IMG/VR virus record: IMGVR_UViG_3300042879_001019
Span: 1 to 60,162 of that record
DNA: 60,162 bases
Reading direction: 5' to 3' (one strand)
Source of the DNA: a virus
Taxonomy: Duplodnaviria; Caudoviricetes
A model generated the notes under the pieces. The model was not told the origin of the DNA. It did not search any database and saw only the letters and a list, made by a program, of their open reading frames with translations. Below are positions 15,676 to 45,646 of the stretch, one piece after another. Position 1 is the first letter of the stretch; each line of letters opens with the position of its first letter. Made by a program: the position numbers and the translations under genes.

Positions 15676-15683
15676 ATTTGTGT

Positions 15684-16085
15684 ATGGAAGTTCGATTCTT
15701 AAATGATGACGATTATAAAACATTGTCATCATGGTGGAAAGATTGGAGATGGACACCACCACCAATTGATATGTTGCCACAAAATGGTAAAGGCGGTGTG
15801 ATGGTTTTCAAGGATGGTGTTGAGATATGTGCTGGATTTGTTTACTTTACTAATTCAAAAACAGCATGGATAGAGTTTATAGTATCAAACTTTCACTATA
15901 GAGAAGATGACAGGCATGAAGCTCTTGAATTTCTTATAAATGTGTTAACTGAAATCATTAAGGAGACTGGTGACTTTAAATACATTTATACATCTTTAAA
16001 GAGCAAAAGTCTAGTTGATAGATACAGCAATTGTGGGTTTCAAAAGGGAGATGGCAATTGTCAGGAAATGGTTAAAATATTATAA
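15684..16085 (+). CDS. Putative GNAT-fold internal virion protein
   Basis: VRFL..DDY start and YSNCGF end resemble GNAT; same position as T7 gp13 before ejection proteins; ATG at 15684 follows TAAATTTG. Confidence 0.45.
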   Translation: MEVRFLNDDDYKTLSSWWKDWRWTPPPIDMLPQNGKGGVMVFKDGVEICAGFVYFTNSKTAWIEFIVSNFHYREDDRHEALEFLINVLTEIIKETGDFKYIYTSLKSKSLVDRYSNCGFQKGDGNCQEMVKIL

Positions 16086-29365: not shown

Positions 29366-29569
29366 TCATTTGTTTTTATCCACATTCCGCGAGTTATAAT
29401 CAATTATAAATCCTATAAATACAATTATGTTCATGCCAATCGAAGAAATAACTTCGATTATATCTTCATATATGTTTAAAGACAAGTGAACATGCCCAAC
29501 TACCCAGAAAGGTATGGATAAGTTCTGACTTATCCAAACAATAGTATACTTTATTAATCCTTTAACCAA
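29366..29569 (-). CDS. Small membrane protein
   Basis: Two hydrophobic stretches. Confidence 0.45.
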   Translation of the reverse strand: MVKGLIKYTIVWISQNLSIPFWVVGHVHLSLNIYEDIIEVISSIGMNIIVFIGFIIDYNSRNVDKNK

Positions 29570-29832
29570 TTCCTAAATGCTAGGCCCATGTTGTCTAATT
29601 GATATAAGAACGCTCTATGTTCCTCATCATTCTCTATGTCCATCTTTTTATAAAGCTGGTCGCTATTTTTTAGGACTTCTTTTATAAAATCATTTCCAGC
29701 TTTTTTAATTTGTCGGACATAAACATTTGGATACACATTTTTAATGTCCTCCATGAAGTCCATTAGGACTGGCAAAATACTTACCAAGCTCGCCAGTTTT
29801 TTCTCGTTCGATATAAATTTCTCTTTCTCCAT
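29554..29832 (-). CDS. Hypothetical protein
   Basis: Overlapping ORF within the operon. Confidence 0.55.
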   Translation of the reverse strand: MEKEKFISNEKKLASLVSILPVLMDFMEDIKNVYPNVYVRQIKKAGNDFIKEVLKNSDQLYKKMDIENDEEHRAFLYQLDNMGLAFRNWLKD

Positions 29833-31882: not shown

Positions 31883-32276
31883 TACAATTTATTATTGAAA
31901 AACGTCTTTTAAATGCCATTGATTCTAAAGGAAAGTCATCTATAGATACTTCTGATGAACATCCAATAATTATTTCTGGGTAGATTATAAATGGATCTTT
32001 ACATTGCTTTTCTACCATAAGGCCCTGGCATATATAGCTATAAAAAAAATCTATATTTGATGCATCTTTAAAATCATCTATTATTACTAATTCAGTATTT
32101 AAATTACAGCGACTAAAATAAAAACCCATACTATACCTATATAATATCTCATTAAGATTACGCCCATCGAACCAAGTAACATTATCTTGATTATACGAAC
32201 TTGCTATTTCTTTAGCTTTTAGTGTTTTTCCACTGTCGGAATCACCTATTATTACTGTTATCTTTCTGTCCATCAT
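31833..32276 (-). CDS. Stand-alone SF3-like P-loop NTPase domain
   Basis: GDSDSGKT, LVIIDD, AFKRRF. Confidence 0.65.
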   Translation of the reverse strand: MMDRKITVIIGDSDSGKTLKAKEIASSYNQDNVTWFDGRNLNEILYRYSMGFYFSRCNLNTELVIIDDFKDASNIDFFYSYICQGLMVEKQCKDPFIIYPEIIIGCSSEVSIDDFPLESMAFKRRFSIINCNDGTKGLSDRHSEQGD

Positions 32277-34916: not shown

Positions 34917-35211
34917 ATTCTTCGATGTCTTTTAAATATTTTGAATCATTAATTTCAATATATGTCTCATGCTTTTTAATGCCTGACATAACAGTTGCGT
35001 GATCTCTTCCAAAATATCCTCCAATATCTTCGAACGTTAAATTCGTCTCTTCTCTCATCTTGTTGTAAAGGAAATACCTCTTGTGTGTCTTAGACTGAAT
35101 TCTTGATGGTACATTTAAATTATCTTGTTCTATTAAGGTCATTACCTTTTCTAAAAATTCACTAACGTTGTGGTATTTCATTAGTGATCCACAGTGACTA
35201 CATCTTCTCAT
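34864..35211 (-). CDS. DnaA domain IV-like HTH protein
   Basis: LTFEDIGGYFGRDHATVMSGIKK matches the DnaA C-terminal signature. Confidence 0.75.
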   Translation of the reverse strand: MRRCSHCGSLMKYHNVSEFLEKVMTLIEQDNLNVPSRIQSKTHKRYFLYNKMREETNLTFEDIGGYFGRDHATVMSGIKKHETYIEINDSKYLKDIEEYDNLFQDDQRHIDTIPC

Positions 35212-35578
35212 CTTCTCTATATTTTATTTCTTTTCTAATTAAATCTAAGTGCCAATCAGCACCGCCATACTCAAGCACTGCCTGTAGGTAATCATCGTCC
35301 ATATCTTTAATCGCGATGTACGTTAATGGCTGCATTCCATCCTTACCTCGACTACCCCTTGTAGCGTACTGCCTAACAAGCTGGAAGTCATCATCAGCAA
35401 ATACCTCATGGTGGACTATCTTCTTCATGTCCATAGCACCATACCTCGCGTAGTCAAGTCCTCCATCTACCATCGCTCCATTTGGACACCTGCATGTCTT
35501 GTAGTCGTGTCTGTGGTAACTAACTATCGTGTCTAAACATTCAATGCACGTCACTGCATTATATACTAACTGTCTCAT
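35198..35578 (-). CDS. Hypothetical Zn-ribbon protein
   Basis: CxxC..HRHD..CxC..VDGG. Confidence 0.6.
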   Translation of the reverse strand: MRQLVYNAVTCIECLDTIVSYHRHDYKTCRCPNGAMVDGGLDYARYGAMDMKKIVHHEVFADDDFQLVRQYATRGSRGKDGMQPLTYIAIKDMDDDYLQAVLEYGGADWHLDLIRKEIKYREDEKM

Positions 35579-36048
35579 ATCTCAAAAAAATTATCGTTCC
35601 ACGTTGATACTTTAGTTTCGCCATCTACCCATGGCCATGTCTCTTTTGCTTTATTGTAATCATTATCACTGTACTTTTCAAGCCATAACTTTTGCTCGTA
35701 GTACTTGTCAGTACCACCTACAGGTGATACCCAAAAGATGCAGAACTGCCACCTGAAAAAGTATATGTAGAAAGCAGGAGGCCACTCAAATCTAGGCGTG
35801 TCATACTTATCCTTCCAACCTAACTTAAGTTTTTTAAACTTGATTGGCGAGCCTATCTGTATCCAGTAATATCTGTTGAACAACTCTACAATCCAATTCA
35901 TTGATCGTCTGACCATTGGTGCGCTTGCTGGATCTTTTACCCTTCGTATCGTTACTATATTCCTATCGAAATTTATAGGCATAAAGTAAGGACATCCATG
36001 TACTATCTTTCCAAAGTAGTACTTCTTAATTGGTTTTTTTAGTTTCAT
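35575..36048 (-). CDS. Hypothetical Trp-rich protein
   Basis: Coupled ORF. Confidence 0.55.
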   Translation of the reverse strand: MKLKKPIKKYYFGKIVHGCPYFMPINFDRNIVTIRRVKDPASAPMVRRSMNWIVELFNRYYWIQIGSPIKFKKLKLGWKDKYDTPRFEWPPAFYIYFFRWQFCIFWVSPVGGTDKYYEQKLWLEKYSDNDYNKAKETWPWVDGETKVSTWNDNFFEI

Positions 36049-36407
36049 TTCTTATTATTTTTTAATTGTTCTCTTAAACGATAGCAGTATAGGATGGCAT
36101 CCATCATCTCCTCAAGCAAATGGTCGCACCACTGCTCCTCACTCAAATCAGTCCTATCTAATGTTGTGTTATACTTCTTGATTCCAACAGCAGAACGCTG
36201 TCTAAACTTTTCGATTATACTCTCGACTACACTATCTACTAATTCAAAATTTTTGTACTCAAGAAACCATCTATCAATATTCCCCTTATGATCTTCACCT
36301 TTCAACCAAGCACCATACTTATCTGGCTCATCTATCAATACAATCTGTCCTTTTTTAAAATAACTATTACCAATAGTTATTCTTACCTTTTGTCCTTTAT
36401 TAAGCAT
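36045..36407 (-). CDS. Protein with a C-terminal MazG-like all-alpha NTP pyrophosphatase domain
   Basis: RSAVGIKKY..HLLEEMMDAILY (EExxD). Confidence 0.5.
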   Translation of the reverse strand: MLNKGQKVRITIGNSYFKKGQIVLIDEPDKYGAWLKGEDHKGNIDRWFLEYKNFELVDSVVESIIEKFRQRSAVGIKKYNTTLDRTDLSEEQWCDHLLEEMMDAILYCYRLREQLKNNKK

Positions 36408-36429
36408 ATTTCATTAGATTTAAGTAAAA

Positions 36430-36755
36430 ATATCGAACAGACATACCTGTCGATATATAGTTTTTCCCAGTATGTTGGGTTAACCACAGAACTATAACTG
36501 TCGTTCGCCATGAACTTTGTAGTCATGGTATGACTCAACTTACCATGACTTTATAGGACACGCTTAACCTATTGAGTTGCTAGCAGGTACACTCTTCGAT
36601 GCCGAACATCAGCGTTTTTTTAGCAACTTTTATTACTGTCCGAAAGAGTTGCCAACTTTGCCTACTTACGATTAGGAATCAGAGTGTGCGCTGGCAAGTA
36701 AACTGTCCTTACACATCGCCTTGATTGACCTACGATCCCTTGTACTTCGGGCGCA
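36430..36755 (-). ncRNA. Cluster of consecutive structured RNA elements of unknown family
   Basis: No credible ORF; about 8 adjacent stems including the perfect AGTCATGGTA/TACCATGACT and AGTTGCTA/TAGCAACT. Confidence 0.55.
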
Positions 36756-36756
36756 A

Positions 36757-37104
36757 TTACACTAATGTCAACAAGTACAACGTCTTATTAACAAGGCCCA
36801 ACATCTCATCCAATATGTTCTCTAAGTCACATGGATAGTTGTCAGAGTCAGCTTCACCCTCAATCAATTTTTGCATTGACTTTAAGTGATCCATAGCATT
36901 CATTGCCTTTGACTCAGGAATTACAATTGGAATTCGCTTGTTGCGACCAAAATACTTCTCAGTAAATGAGTCAGTCAACTCTAAAATTCCATCATAATAA
37001 TGTCCCAAAGCCTTATGCTCTGCAAATGATGTTGTCTGTAGATGCTGTAAGTGCATCATGTCTCGCGATTGAAATAACAATCCTATAAATTTCCCTGTTT
37101 CCAT
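36757..37104 (-). CDS. Ferritin/Dps-like four-helix protein (DUF5856-like)
   Basis: HLQH..EHKALGHYYD..DSFTEKY..LDEM; ATG 4 nt after TAAATTTG. Confidence 0.65.
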   Translation of the reverse strand: METGKFIGLLFQSRDMMHLQHLQTTSFAEHKALGHYYDGILELTDSFTEKYFGRNKRIPIVIPESKAMNAMDHLKSMQKLIEGEADSDNYPCDLENILDEMLGLVNKTLYLLTLV

Positions 37105-37113
37105 ATTACAAAT

Positions 37114-37284
37114 TTAACGCTTTAAGTCTAACCAACTACCTAGATATATTGGCATCATAAACCAACCTGCTACAAAGCTTAGAAATGCTTTTAGTAATAC
37201 ATCAATAGTCCTATCATTCTCGCCATGTGTCACTCCCCACGTAAAGCACGCTGAGAAAAAGACATAAAATATCATCAACCACAT
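37114..37284 (-). CDS. Small two-TM membrane protein (56 aa)
   Basis: MWLMIFYVFFSACFTWG..AFLSFVAGWFMMPIYLG; fills the gap between SSB and ferritin genes. Confidence 0.5.
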   Translation of the reverse strand: MWLMIFYVFFSACFTWGVTHGENDRTIDVLLKAFLSFVAGWFMMPIYLGSWLDLKR

Positions 37285-37286
37285 AG

Positions 37287-37640
37287 CTAGAACGGTAAAT
37301 CTTCGTCATTACCACTAATATCTATAACTGGAACGTTTCCCAACATAGGTGCTCCAATTGACTCAACCTTATAAGCATCTAACGTGTTAAAATACTTAAC
37401 GTCTCCTTGAGGCGATGTCCACTCTCTACCTTTTAAGTTGAAGCTTACCTCAACCTCTTGACCTTCAATAAAGTTGTCTAATAAACTCGTTTTGTCTTGC
37501 TTTAATTCAAACATAATATCTTGCGTATACTTTTCATCTGAATTGTCAGTCACAACGAACTCACGCTTACTAAACTTCTCTGACACCTGTTGTGTCTGTC
37601 TGATCACCTTGATCACACCCTTCATTTTAAATGCACTCAT
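37287..37640 (-). CDS. DUF3127-like single-stranded DNA-binding protein
   Basis: FSKREFVV..VEVSFNLKGREW..YFNTL; acidic DEDLPF C-terminus. Confidence 0.8.
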   Translation of the reverse strand: MSAFKMKGVIKVIRQTQQVSEKFSKREFVVTDNSDEKYTQDIMFELKQDKTSLLDNFIEGQEVEVSFNLKGREWTSPQGDVKYFNTLDAYKVESIGAPMLGNVPVIDISGNDEDLPF

Positions 37641-37661
37641 TTTATTTGATTTAATTGATTA

Positions 37662-37835
37662 CTAAAATACACCGTCAGTCAATATATTTTGCTGTCTGTG
37701 TGTGAAATGCTCACCTATATAATTAAGGAGCTCTGCCATTGTTTGGAATACCATTGCTGGATTTACAGACATGTTGGCATTAGGGGTGTTATCTCTAACA
37801 ATATACCCGTTCTTTACTTGTGTTATCTCTATCAT
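37662..37835 (-). CDS. Small hypothetical protein (57 aa, MIEITQVKNGYIV...)
   Basis: ATGA overlap with the exonuclease stop. Confidence 0.5.
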   Translation of the reverse strand: MIEITQVKNGYIVRDNTPNANMSVNPAMVFQTMAELLNYIGEHFTHRQQNILTDGVF

Positions 37836-38599
37836 TTGTTTATTAGTTTATTATAATACTCATCAGCATACTCATTAGCAGCTTTAACTCTTCGCTCAAT
37901 CTTTAATATGTCATCGTCTGTCAACTCTACAGGAACGACAGTCACACATAACCTCTTGTTTATGAAGTCATCAATGTAGTGCAAAGACTCACTCTCCCAC
38001 TCAGGCTTAATCTCTGGAGGAGTGCTAACCAATACATGCGCTACCTCACCATGCCGCCAGTTCTCACCAGTGATCTTACTCAACATGTATAAGTACAACT
38101 TAACCTGCCACTGATATCCTAAATCATAGGCCTTCTCAGGAGTTTTAGGAAAAGTCTTCTTAGTCCATGATGACTTGATGTCGATAACCTTTCTTCTCTC
38201 ACAATCAACAATGTCAGGGTGTCCTACAAGTATACCATACTCAATACTGTAATACTTGTCTGCCTCAACCAACTTATTATACTTAGTGCCGAACACAGCA
38301 TTGTACACCTCAATTGAGTCGGTCTCAACAGCCCAGCCTTTCTCGGTTATTGGACTAGAGAAATTATTCTCATACCTGTAGACTTTCCGATCGACATACT
38401 CCTCGATCAATGTCTTTGCCCCTGCCGACAGTTCAACAGGCGAGTCGCGCTTGGCTATCAACTCGTCACGTTTCTCAGCCTGTTTCTCCGTCAGTTTTAT
38501 CTTGGATGATAATTCATCCAGTAGTTCGGATTGCTTTGCCGTCAGCCCATCATCACCTAAGAAGACAGGGCTAGATGTAGATGCCCTAAGACTGAGCAT
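37832..38599 (-). CDS. YqaJ/Cas4-like PD-(D/E)XK exonuclease
   Basis: KG..VE, GHPDI, IDIKSS, YQWQVKLY. Confidence 0.75.
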   Translation of the reverse strand: MLSLRASTSSPVFLGDDGLTAKQSELLDELSSKIKLTEKQAEKRDELIAKRDSPVELSAGAKTLIEEYVDRKVYRYENNFSSPITEKGWAVETDSIEVYNAVFGTKYNKLVEADKYYSIEYGILVGHPDIVDCERRKVIDIKSSWTKKTFPKTPEKAYDLGYQWQVKLYLYMLSKITGENWRHGEVAHVLVSTPPEIKPEWESESLHYIDDFINKRLCVTVVPVELTDDDILKIERRVKAANEYADEYYNKLINK

Positions 38600-39086
38600 C
38601 CTCTAGCTGTTTTAACTGATCGTCAGTTAGTTTATACTGTGACTTGATTAGATCTAATGACGTTGACTTAGTCTTGACAGCCTCAATGGCTACCTTTAGA
38701 CTGCTGTCCGTCAGCACCTTCATCTCACCCTTCTTAGTAGGTAACGGCCTAGTGCTGAATCGCAACGCCTCAACCATACCCTGTGGACTCTTTACCTTCT
38801 CAGCTCCCAATACTATCTGCTTGCCTATGTATGCATTCGGATCAAACGAATCAAAGAAAGTCTCCAACCTCTTGAAGTTCGTTCGGTTTGTTACCATAGG
38901 CTTCGAGAACTCCTTCAGCTTGATGAATACCTTCTGCTCCTTACCCATCTCCCCAACAAAGGTATCTTGGTAGATCTTCTCAATTGTTACGACTCTTGAC
39001 TCGTACTTACCATTTACTTCTAAATCCCAAGCACCTAAGTACTTGTTGTCGGCCATCATGTTGCGCCAGTGTGTTTGATTATTCAT
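38586..39086 (-). CDS. Hypothetical protein, possible recombination partner of the exonuclease
   Basis: Position before the exonuclease and SSB genes. Confidence 0.45.
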   Translation of the reverse strand: MNNQTHWRNMMADNKYLGAWDLEVNGKYESRVVTIEKIYQDTFVGEMGKEQKVFIKLKEFSKPMVTNRTNFKRLETFFDSFDPNAYIGKQIVLGAEKVKSPQGMVEALRFSTRPLPTKKGEMKVLTDSSLKVAIEAVKTKSTSLDLIKSQYKLTDDQLKQLEDAQS

Positions 39087-39096
39087 TTAATTTAAT

Positions 39097-39477
39097 TTAA
39101 GGGGTTACAAACTTAACTAATCTTTGTTGATAATCCAACAATTTTTCTTTATTTTTTTCTATCTTCTTCTGCATCGTCTCAGGGCCAACCAGACAATTGG
39201 ACTCTAAGAGGTGCTCCTGCCACTCTAACTTATGCTCAAGCACATTGATGTTAACGTTCAGACATCCTGCCACCCATCCATACTTCTCAAATATCTCCAT
39301 CTCATCATCACCTATGTCCCTGAACTTCTCGTTCGGTGTCATCGTGTTCTTGATCTCTACCCTGCCATCCTCATCAAACTTCTCGATCTTAACTCCCATG
39401 TCAACATACCACATACTCACTCTAGTATGATAGAGTGAGACATGTGGGTTTTCTTCTAAGTCTTGCCAAGCTTTCAT
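39097..39477 (-). CDS. Hypothetical protein
   Basis: Coupled ORF. Confidence 0.55.
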   Translation of the reverse strand: MKAWQDLEENPHVSLYHTRVSMWYVDMGVKIEKFDEDGRVEIKNTMTPNEKFRDIGDDEMEIFEKYGWVAGCLNVNINVLEHKLEWQEHLLESNCLVGPETMQKKIEKNKEKLLDYQQRLVKFVTP

Positions 39478-39674
39478 TTTTCTAATTCTTTTAATAATGC
39501 GTCTGCATAATCAACACTTAATTCAGCTACTACCTCAGGATCATCTCCATACACTTCTGTCATTTTACATAACGATTGCATTGCTAACCCAGCAAAATAT
39601 TCTCTTTTGGTTAAACCAAATTGATATGCTTCATTTACTATACCAGTAAATGCTGATTGTTTTCCATTTTCCAT
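39474..39674 (-). CDS. Small phage protein of the GLTKREYFA..AMQ type
   Basis: Motif GLTKREYFAGLAMQ..YADALL. Confidence 0.6.
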   Translation of the reverse strand: MENGKQSAFTGIVNEAYQFGLTKREYFAGLAMQSLCKMTEVYGDDPEVVAELSVDYADALLKELEK

Positions 39675-39675
39675 T

Positions 39676-39849
39676 CTATTCTAATTTAAAGGTTTGTTTT
39701 TTAGTTTTGGCTAAATAGTAAAGCTCTGCGTATTCTTGCATTGCTATCAATGCTTGTGACCTATCAATGATACCATCATAATCAGTATACTTGTTTAGTA
39801 TTTCTTCTTTTGAACCAAGCAATATTATTTCTTTTTGTTCCTCATTCAT
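39676..39849 (-). CDS. Small hypothetical protein ending TFKLE
   Basis: Start and stop both lie in junction repeats. Confidence 0.55.
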   Translation of the reverse strand: MNEEQKEIILLGSKEEILNKYTDYDGIIDRSQALIAMQEYAELYYLAKTKKQTFKLE

Positions 39850-39850
39850 T

Positions 39851-40048
39851 CTATTCTGATTTAAAGGTTTCGTTGTAAAATGTTTCCGCATCTCCATATC
39901 CTGATGTTTCATACTTTCCATCATCCCAAGCATCCATTATCTGATTCTCAAACATTTTATCTGCTTGCTCAACTATATCCTCAGGAACTCCATAAGGAAA
40001 ATATCCCTCATTCCATAGTTGTTGTATTAACCAATTTACTGCTGTCAT
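39851..40048 (-). CDS. Small protein of the MTAVxW..TFKSE type
   Basis: Paralogous with 43071..43274. Confidence 0.6.
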   Translation of the reverse strand: MTAVNWLIQQLWNEGYFPYGVPEDIVEQADKMFENQIMDAWDDGKYETSGYGDAETFYNETFKSE

Positions 40049-44868: not shown

Positions 44869-44869
44869 A

Positions 44870-44987
44870 CTGCACCCTTTTTAACCGAAAAACCTTCTCG
44901 GCTTTCGAGGGTGCAGCTCTACTAACCGAAAAGGTTGTTCAAATTCTTGTTTAACTTTTGTCCCTGCACCGAACAAGGACAAATATA
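44870..44987 (-). promoter_or_regulatory. Promoter plus leader with P4-CI/C4-like complementary segments
   Basis: TATATTTG; GGTGCAG near the 5' end; CTGCACCCT in the loop of stem AACCTTTTCGG/CCGAGAAGGTT; AGGGTGCAG one nt before ATG. Confidence 0.55.
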
Positions 44988-45380
44988 GTGTTAAAGTTTT
45001 ATCTAATTTGTTAAAAAAGGTTAAAAAATGTTATAATGAAATTCATGTATCCCTTATTCTATCTATATAGTGTTAATATGTTAATCTTTTTCTCGTCTAT
45101 AAGAAAAAAATAATGAACAAGAGAATGAACAAGAGATATATAGGGGGAATAACCCCGTCCCATAAAAAAAAAATATTCTCCACTATAGGAAAAAAGTCAC
45201 CACTTTACCACTATTTTTAACTAATTGACTGATTATCAAGCAACTAACTTTTTTCAGTTAACACAAAATCGCAAATTTCAACACTATTTTCAATAATTCC
45301 AACATTTTAAACAGGTCGATTTATTGGTTAATCTTTTCACAATCAACATGTTAGTTAAGTTTACTTAACGCAACACTTTA
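44988..45380. other. AT-rich non-coding region, candidate replication origin
   Basis: TAGTGTTAA/TGTTA repeats on the left and AACACTA/CACTAT on the right in inverted orientation; direct repeat AATGAACAAGAG x2; IHF-like AATCAACATGTTA at 45341. Confidence 0.4.
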
Positions 45381-45427
45381 ATTCCAGTCCAACCATTCTT
45401 TTATTAGGTCGTTTATTTCTTCGTCTC

Positions 45428-45646
45428 TCATGGCTTCTCGTTTAATATGTCAATACTCATTTTGATTGCTAACCAAATTTGATCGGTCGTGTCGTTATTC
45501 GTTAACGCCATTTCTAAGACTTGTCTTGCTTGGTCTTTCTTTATGTTGCCCTCAGCTACATTGTACACATCTTGAATGTGCCACAGGTTATCTACAAAGT
45601 ATCCTGCATCTCGCAAGACTTCTTTTGCTTTTAGTATCTCATTCAT
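45428..45646 (-). CDS. Early-region hypothetical protein
   Basis: Coupled ORF. Confidence 0.6.
   Translation of the reverse strand: MNEILKAKEVLRDAGYFVDNLWHIQDVYNVAEGNIKKDQARQVLEMALTNNDTTDQIWLAIKMSIDILNEKP

Follow-up and report, generated by a model that had tools for sequence, protein, structure and literature searches.

Structured RNA modules in an ORF-free gap of a phage replication module: a candidate terminator-type leader and its tRNA-associated companions

The gap, its neighbours and its division into four units

The stretch of DNA analysed here (the window; 60,162 nt) comprises positions 1 to 60,162 of IMG/VR record IMGVR_UViG_3300042879_001019, a near-complete virus of 60 kb assigned to the Caudoviricetes. 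A gap of 349 nt at positions 36408–36756, for which the minus strand is the sense strand, separates two minus-strand genes, and the first-pass annotation was right that it contains no credible open reading frame (ORF). The surrounding replication module includes genes for a DUF3127 SSB, a PD-(D/E)XK exonuclease, a BT4734-like primase/helicase and a DnaA-C-like HTH protein. The gene set hints at a Bacteroidota host. Neighbouring genes abut or overlap across 35198–39933; elsewhere in the window, other gaps of 150–600 nt occur. Further ORF-poor stretches of 340–600 nt (44869–45465, 31883–32241 and 15676–16014) have no sequence in common with the gap studied here.

ARAGORN found no tRNA genes in the window, and Rfam 15 returned no match at gathering threshold across the window and none at E≤10 on positions 36350–36850, in agreement with the earlier statement that no tRNA or riboswitch is recognisable. 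When 29 related loci were searched against Rfam, the only matches were to tRNA, all of them in relatives. No repeat units were found within the gap. A distant blastn search with 1.2 kb against a phage record collection recovered a single record, which matched part of the DUF5856 gene only, and a full-text literature search found no paper on DUF5856.

Loci of relatives were gathered by searches with both flanking proteins (103 viral and 19 metagenome loci; L-numbers below). Comparison of the gap with the viral loci by blastn gave recurring blocks with variable DNA in between, and 23 related gaps of 82–1192 nt, some of which end at a contig edge, were mapped. Judged by this comparison, the gap is composed of four evolutionary units, designated A to D, rather than of the “about eight” mutually unrelated stem modules proposed at first. 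These units and their neighbours, in 5' to 3' order on the minus strand, are as follows.

36757–37104, minus: DUF5856 / phrog_858 gene, 5' of the gap; its stop codon abuts module A
36623–36756, minus: module A, four-hairpin RNA, 134 nt, beginning right after the DUF5856 stop codon
36737–36751, minus: P1 of A, CCC/GGG
36677–36726, minus: P2 of A, a long hairpin with AATCA/TGATT, GCG/CGC and the tip GTAAG/CTTGC
36661–36676, minus: P3 of A, CCTA/TAGG, with a GUAA loop
36623–36652, minus: P4 of A, GCAACT/AGTTGC
36554–36622, minus: module B, highly conserved, 69 nt, with a possible closing helix ACGCU/AGCGU and the palindrome UGCUAGCA
36598–36610, minus: hairpin of B, GATG-UUCGG-CAUC
36519–36553, minus: module C, with a perfect 10-bp hairpin AGUCAUGGUA/UACCAUGACU at 36521–36550
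36503–36518, minus: spacer between C and D, site of GTTC/GAAC; variable, no kept hairpin
36425–36502, minus: module D, conserved three-helix motif, 78 nt
36490–36496 with 36456–36462, minus: P1 of D, UAUAGUU/AACUAUA
36466–36479, minus: P2 of D, CCCA/UGGG, with loop L2, ACAUAC, at 36470–36475
36431–36455, minus: P3 of D, terminator hairpin, with loop L3, GUAUGU, at 36441–36446
36426–36430, minus: U5 run after P3 of D
36045–36407, minus: 120-aa gene, 3' of the gap; its homologues always follow module D

Folding energy by itself is weak, borderline evidence at this locus, and the comparative data decide. Measured against shuffled sequences, a control that the first-pass annotation had itself proposed, the whole gap is borderline on the minus strand (z −2.39) and similar on the plus strand (z −2.73), with 1 of 100 shuffles equally good in each case. 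Among the single units only the 10-bp hairpin C stands out (z −4.68; 0 of 200 shuffles equally good), followed by D (z −1.82; 8 of 200). Modules A (134 nt; z +0.73; 154 of 200) and B (69 nt; z −0.08; 83 of 200) fold no better than shuffles when taken alone, and the description of the gap as almost entirely stems was overstated. Covariation among homologues, the other evidence that had been named in advance, is present on the minus strand in modules A, C and D and at one pair in B.

Modules A, B and C at a mosaic locus

The order of elements is constant across the 23 related gaps, namely A, the optional 81-aa ORF, B, optional tRNA-like elements, C or tRNA-Tyr, and D, while the combinations differ from gap to gap, which bears out the suggestion that the pieces are shuffled independently. 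Their occurrence is given below.

Module A: 16 of the 23 related gaps
Module B: 15 of the 23
Module C: 8 of the 23
Module D: 21 of the 23
tRNA-Tyr(GTA): L002, L004 and L009, and L121 by similarity
59–60-nt tRNA-like element without anticodon arm: 7 gaps
59–60-nt tRNA-like element split by an insert of ~87 nt: 3 gaps

The 59–60-nt elements keep the acceptor, D and T arms, have 1–2 nt in place of the anticodon arm, and score 41–45 bits with the Rfam tRNA model. The armless copies are located at L008 1610–1669, L007 2857–2916, L010 3480–3538, L013 3823–3882 and L014 2333–2392, and also in L081 and L106. In the L014 copy, compensatory swaps have taken place at the first two acceptor pairs (UCUCAAG/CUUGAGA versus AGUCAAG/CUUGGCU), and the fold therefore appears to be maintained rather than decaying. 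A second kind of element, a tRNA-Leu-like frame carrying an insert of 36–130 nt, was found in L001, L004, L009, L011, L013, L050 and L108. More broadly, class-II tRNA frames were located at L001 3605–3750, L002 2515–2660, L121 2037–2190, L004 1936–2125, L009 3001–3190, L013 3948–4047, L050 860–986, L108 88–177 and L011 3260–3350. These have tRNA-Ser/Tyr-like and tRNA-Leu-like D arms, canonical T arms and paired acceptor stems; unrelated structured inserts of 36 to ~130 nt replace the anticodon and variable region, and the anticodon loop is unrecognisable. The earlier remark that nothing in the gap matches a tRNA thus holds for the window itself but misses a relation to tRNA, seen in the tRNA-Tyr and tRNA-like elements that occupy the same slot in relatives and in the tRNA-like ends of C.

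Protein-coding sequence also enters the gap in some relatives. An 81-aa ORF (MEETEQDELRNEE...), 100% conserved and with a stop codon that overlaps the start of B, lies between A and B in L002 (2204–2449), L004, L013, L089 and L104 and is absent elsewhere. L104, a near-identical relative in which the downstream gene is 98% identical, additionally carries an HNH-type homing endonuclease ORF within the gap (~600–1010), which fits the locus as a site of mobile-element traffic. Taken together, the distribution of these elements indicates that the locus is a tRNA-island hot spot.

At the nucleotide level B (90–99% identity), C (87–97%) and the core of D (93–100%) are more conserved than the flanking coding genes (DUF5856, 82–98%; 120-aa gene, 60–84%; next gene, 64–93%). 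Module A of L013 is 99% identical as against 82% for DUF5856, and by comparison with this case the high identity of B and of the D core could partly stem from recent recombination.

The four hairpins of module A were derived from a regular-expression, hand-parsed structure; MAFFT with RNAalifold returned two invariant helices only, and missed P2 and P3 through a one-column register shift. In a structure-blind alignment of 11 sequences, 99.6% of cells in the helices are paired, compared with 29–43% when the 3' partners are slid, and five pairs are changed on both sides, a number reached by 1 of 500 shuffles. P2 exists as AAUCA/UGAUU, AACUA/UAGUU, AGUGA/UCACU, AGCGA/UCGCU and GAUGA/UCAUU, and the CCTA/TAGG stem singled out at first sight (P3) covaries as well. 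A covariance model of A (R1) gave 97.6% paired cells and compensatory changes at 12 of 26 pairs among 16 distinct sequences, in an alignment fitted to the model; such alignments, of A with R1 and likewise of D, come from models that include part of the structure under test. Compensatory changes thus argue strongly for the fold of module A despite its null folding energy.

R1 also finds a distant A-like copy in L067 (30.9 bits; rough E 3e-4), in which the helices have changed and are still paired; a search of 99 further loci yielded no other copy. Two instances of the motif AUCGUA are present in A, at the P1/P2 junction and in the P3 loop, both in the window and in L067. The L067 copy begins 3 nt past the stop codon of an unrelated small ORF. 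It belongs to an ORF-free run of ~800 nt at another genome position (825–1620), where the A-like module is followed by at least three tRNA-Leu-like frames, two of which are each preceded by the hairpin ACGGGGAAAGACCCGU. Beside module A in the window, an 8-nt perfect complement was observed between the last codons of DUF5856 (TTGTACTT, 36773–36780) and the P1 loop (AAGTACAA, 36740–36747); this pairing is real in the window, kept by wobble in L014 and broken in L008.

Two of the stems first proposed for this part of the gap have to be revised. The pairing of AGTTGCTA with TAGCAACT does exist, but its arms are split by the 81-aa ORF in all five loci that carry it; the 5' arm is the 3' strand of P4, which closes a local hairpin with GCAACT. 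The TGCGC/GCGCA closing stem is not conserved, its 5' arm differing in 9 of 14 sequences. The ATAGG/CCTAT stem is invariant in relatives.

Module B is nearly invariant. Its GATG/CATC hairpin, correctly noted from the outset, provides the single compensatory pair (GAUU/AAUC in place of GAUG/CAUC). The module has two competing folds, which are indistinguishable. Because just one pair is compensatory, the conservation of B could be at the DNA level. In relatives, an element bearing an acceptor stem always directly follows B.

The perfect 10-bp stem reported for what is now module C is exact and is supported by two compensatory pairs in L005. The module has the 5' end AUAGUCA and the 3' end UGACUAC, and these ends together with both flanks match the tRNA-Leu-like frames in the same slot of L001 and L013, which suggests a deletion derivative that retained the acceptor-stem ends. 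C is accordingly read as what is probably left of the acceptor stem of a tRNA-Leu-like element; a T loop is missing from it, and the Rfam tRNA model does not recognise it. In the spacer downstream of it, the proposed GTTC/GAAC stem is not conserved and fails in 3–5 of 16 sequences.

It is conceivable that A, B and C are functionless, decaying debris of tRNA genes and of mobile-element traffic, and that only D matters. The apparent derivation of C by deletion from a tRNA-like element would be in keeping with this, as would a stretch resembling a tRNA 5' end in the A of relatives (GGGATCGTAGCTCAGT), the unremarkable folding energy of A and B, and the HNH endonuclease gene and 81-aa ORF that come and go at the same place. 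We nevertheless consider it unlikely, given that the helices of A and the stem of C are kept by compensatory changes, that B and C have diverged less than the coding genes on either side, and that the A-like module has been kept in the distant phage L067 (30.9 bits) with helices that changed and yet still pair.

Module D and the gene behind it

Module D consists of two stems recognised from the start and the terminator hairpin P3, with a 6-bp helix between loops L2 and L3, which are complementary to each other. The junction UCUGNGGUUAR and an A run after P2 are invariant. D was searched for with a model (R2) whose structure comprised P2 and P3 only, P1 and the loop–loop helix being left out. 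R2 gave 39 matches in 81 sources, distant relatives among them, and 23 further matches in 72 viral loci retrieved with a degenerate pattern, the other 49 being chance matches to the pattern; in total, 62 matches representing 32 distinct sequences were found in the loci gathered.

Across 23 distinct sequences, 98.5% of cells in the helices of D are paired, compared with 27–45% when the partners are slid. The two elements outside the search model also covary: P1 is 99.4% paired, with three of seven pairs changed on both sides, and the loop–loop helix is 100% paired in the 23 sequences, with four of six pairs changed on both sides (ACAUAC/GUAUGU, CCAUGC/GCAUGG, CCAUAC/GUAUGG, CCAUGU/ACAUGG and CCACAU/GUGUGG). 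Within the search model, two of four pairs of CCCA/TGGG are compensatory and all nine pairs of P3 covary; the stem written as ATATCGA/TCGATAT in the first-pass annotation was therefore real, and proves to be part of a bulged terminator hairpin followed by T5. Among all 32 distinct sequences the loop–loop helix holds except in a subgroup (L260, L323 and L275) that has four pairs and U-U mismatches. Read from the opposite strand, many of the G-U pairs seen on the minus strand would become C-A mismatches, and for this reason the minus strand is taken as the RNA sense.

At the level of sequence comparison, these data establish the fold of D, loop–loop pairing included, and D is a new, well-supported candidate motif without an Rfam family; Rfam searches of six diverged loci gave no family match to it. 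Covariation does not distinguish an intramolecular loop–loop contact from pairing between two molecules. The unusual trait of D is that a terminator loop is locked in a tertiary or intermolecular contact.

As in intrinsic terminators, the P3 hairpin is immediately followed by U5 on the transcribed strand. P3 was not listed by a simple terminator scan, probably owing to its bulge. Inspection of the D alignment gave no conserved antiterminator or extended P2–P3 pairing, and P1 and P3 are adjacent and non-overlapping. D resembles a riboswitch in position, being conserved upstream of homologous genes; the mutually exclusive terminator and antiterminator folds of riboswitches were not found in it.

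The distance from the end of D to the next gene start is 12–25 nt, and that gene is a homologue of the 120-aa gene in 37 of 37 loci and in 22 of 23 loci, the last of which ends at a contig edge. The upstream neighbour of D varies and may be DUF5856, tRNA-Arg, tRNA-Lys, tRNA-Tyr, tRNA-like elements or hairpin C; in L015, L016, L018, L020, L024 and L034, D begins 2–9 nt past the DUF5856 stop codon and the gap is otherwise empty. Because the downstream gene is fixed and the upstream neighbour changes, D is probably a cis-acting leader. It had been included in a proposed array of small RNA modules, a place that is hard to reconcile with a conserved leader or terminator tied to the 120-aa gene. The accompanying suggestion that the array acts as a decoy for host proteins found neither support nor decisive contradiction: the gap has no ToxI-like or CRISPR-like repeats, and R2 matched none of the 80 stretches listed among at least 120 pattern matches in cellular genomes.

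The designation of the 120-aa protein as MazG-like could not be confirmed, since Pfam, NCBIfam and PDB sequence searches gave no significant match. A structure model (mean pLDDT 89.3) predicts an N-terminal SH3-like barrel and a conserved two-helix C-terminal domain. The two-helix hairpin has the invariant residues R71, K78, Y79, E100 and D103, and many homologues are without the barrel. Foldseek returned only generic ribosomal proteins with an SH3-plus-helix arrangement (TM 0.3–0.4), and a search of the ESM Atlas gave a score of 0.76 and nothing significant.

Several other readings of these modules were tried and rejected. D and B were compared by eye with HDV-like, hammerhead and preQ1-like RNAs, but the core nucleotides do not fit, and Rfam was silent on them. 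A small ORF through D is contradicted by the paired change CCA/TGG to CCT/AGG, which replaces Trp by Arg in 5 of 16 sequences, by a 1-nt insertion that shifts this frame in L010, and by 3 of the 16 distinct sequences that have no start codon. A replication origin in the gap was set aside as DnaA-box-like words are not enriched and the strand-specific G-U pairs indicate RNA. Elsewhere in the window, a DnaA-box-like cluster at 29376–29538 (TTATCCACA at 29376; TTATCCATA and TTATCCAAA at 29513–29538) adjoins a 171-nt gap (29570–29740); compared with the gap at 36408–36756, it is the stronger candidate for an origin.

Known systems and a proposed role for the locus

The closest known mechanism for D appears to be the loop docking of cobalamin riboswitches, although D is not a member of that class. 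In the env8 class, as set out in the portions of PMC10907184 consulted, the loop of the sensing domain and that of the expression platform form an L5–L13 kissing helix of 5–7 bp, and this interdomain docking sets gene expression. In D, too, a hairpin that carries an expression signal has its loop paired to that of a hairpin further upstream. It differs from the system described there in that the docked hairpin is a terminator rather than an RBS hairpin, and in having only 78 nt, no cobalamin-type core and no Rfam match. D also shares with intrinsic (Rho-independent) terminators and attenuators a hairpin of 9–10 bp with a U run, located 12–25 nt before a start codon. To our knowledge, the loops of ordinary terminators are not conserved. 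The terminator loop of D, unlike these, covaries with another loop, and the junction upstream of it is invariant. In contrast to pseudo-ToxI and RNA anti-CRISPR decoys, whose units imitate an RNA repeat of the host or of a defence system and mostly occur in tandem, the gap has no repeat units, and no D-like copy was present in the 80 cellular stretches listed.

For other features of the locus, comparable RNAs are known from phages and from plant mitochondria. GOLLD and ROOL are phage-encoded, often located near tRNA islands and of unknown function, and GOLLD is conserved in its 3' part and variable in its 5' part, sometimes with tRNAs in the linker, according to the sections of PMC12286853 available to us. 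The RNAs of that account, unlike the gap RNA, have 500–800 nt or more and conserved folds of their own, and the 3' module of the gap, D, also stands alone and is tied to a protein gene. No cmscan match to GOLLD or ROOL was found in the window or in 29 related loci. Species C and D of phage T4 are small RNAs of a phage tRNA region. Plant mitochondrial t-elements are tRNA-like processing signals, as characterised in the excerpt of PMC1920247. Like the t-elements of that excerpt, the 59–60-nt elements of the relatives, without an anticodon arm, are non-decoding, tRNA-derived shapes within longer transcripts; the window copy, hairpin C, differs in having an acceptor-like stem only and no T loop. 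Searches of the literature on tRNA-like phage elements and on kissing-loop terminators found no description of the motifs reported here.

Modules A to D might alternatively form one stable ncRNA, a small counterpart of the large phage RNAs by tRNA islands, in which D would be a protective 3' domain and the loop–loop pairs, together with palindromic loops (GUAC, UGCUAGCA, GGUUAACC), would link copies to one another as dimers or higher-order assemblies. Conserved 5' and 3' modules around a variable, tRNA-bearing middle are consistent with such an RNA, intermolecular loop pairing fits the covariation equally well, and GOLLD and ROOL, which occur near phage tRNA islands, oligomerise (PMC12286853, in the part consulted). 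This view is, in our judgement, improbable: many relatives have D but none of the other three modules, and D is invariably accompanied by the downstream gene; A can be separated from B, or B from D, by a protein-coding ORF or an HNH gene; no covariation was seen between D and either A or B; and Rfam gave no GOLLD or ROOL match. By far the least credible explanation is that the conservation belongs to the DNA (an origin, operator or single-strand initiation site) or to a small ORF through D (MANDSYSSVVNPTYWEKLY...). In its favour, the gap lies in a replication module beside the SSB, exonuclease, primase/helicase and DnaA-C-like HTH genes, D has 8-bp palindromes and a word, TTAACCACA, that differs from a DnaA box at one position, and in most relatives a frame beginning with ATG runs uninterrupted across the D core. 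Against it, the strand-specific G-U pairs favour RNA, DnaA-box-like words number 2 in the gap as against 135 in 60 kb, fewer than in shuffles, and real tRNA genes and a terminator share the cassette.

The comparative evidence indicates that the gap contains genuine RNA structure under selective maintenance and that this structure is of two kinds, the leader D and the cargo A–C. We favour as probable, if far from secure, the explanation that D is a cis-acting terminator or attenuator leader and that A–C are cargo of a tRNA-island hot spot. In the leader of the 120-aa gene, the 7-bp P1 encloses P2, with the terminator P3 directly next to it and the loops of P2 and P3 paired, and docking of the terminator loop on the upstream domain would set the efficiency with which polymerase stops 12–25 nt before the gene. 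Because there is no room for a promoter after the U run, the 120-aa gene, and with it the replication genes further downstream, would be reached by read-through, at a level that D would set and that a bound factor (small molecule, protein or RNA) could tune. Regulation of read-through by D, as opposed to constitutive termination, is something that we infer, since no conserved antiterminator was found. The cargo A–C would be lineage-specific structured RNA, placed at a site that in this phage group houses tRNA genes, RNAs derived from tRNA and mobile ORFs, with A as a four-hairpin RNA heading tRNA-like arrays. A–C may be transcribed as a 3' extension of the upstream operon that ends at the terminator of D, and may be retained as stable or processed RNAs.

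A bolder and rather doubtful extension would make D a new class of sensing attenuator, in which UCUGNGGUUAR binds a signal and terminator-loop docking is the readout, and would make A–C purpose-built, tRNA-derived scaffolds. If this were true, the signal could be a metabolite, the downstream gene product or the elbow of an upstream tRNA or tRNA-like RNA; D would couple the output of the tRNA island to the expression of replication genes, and the armless and insert-bearing tRNA frames of relatives would likewise be purpose-built scaffolds and not debris.

For annotation, the gap should not be read as a single array of eight decoys. D is compact enough for direct termination assays and structural work. 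The hot spot shows one phage group exchanging tRNAs, armless and insert-bearing tRNA frames and other folded RNAs at a single site, and it may bear on the role of phage tRNA islands and their companion RNAs.
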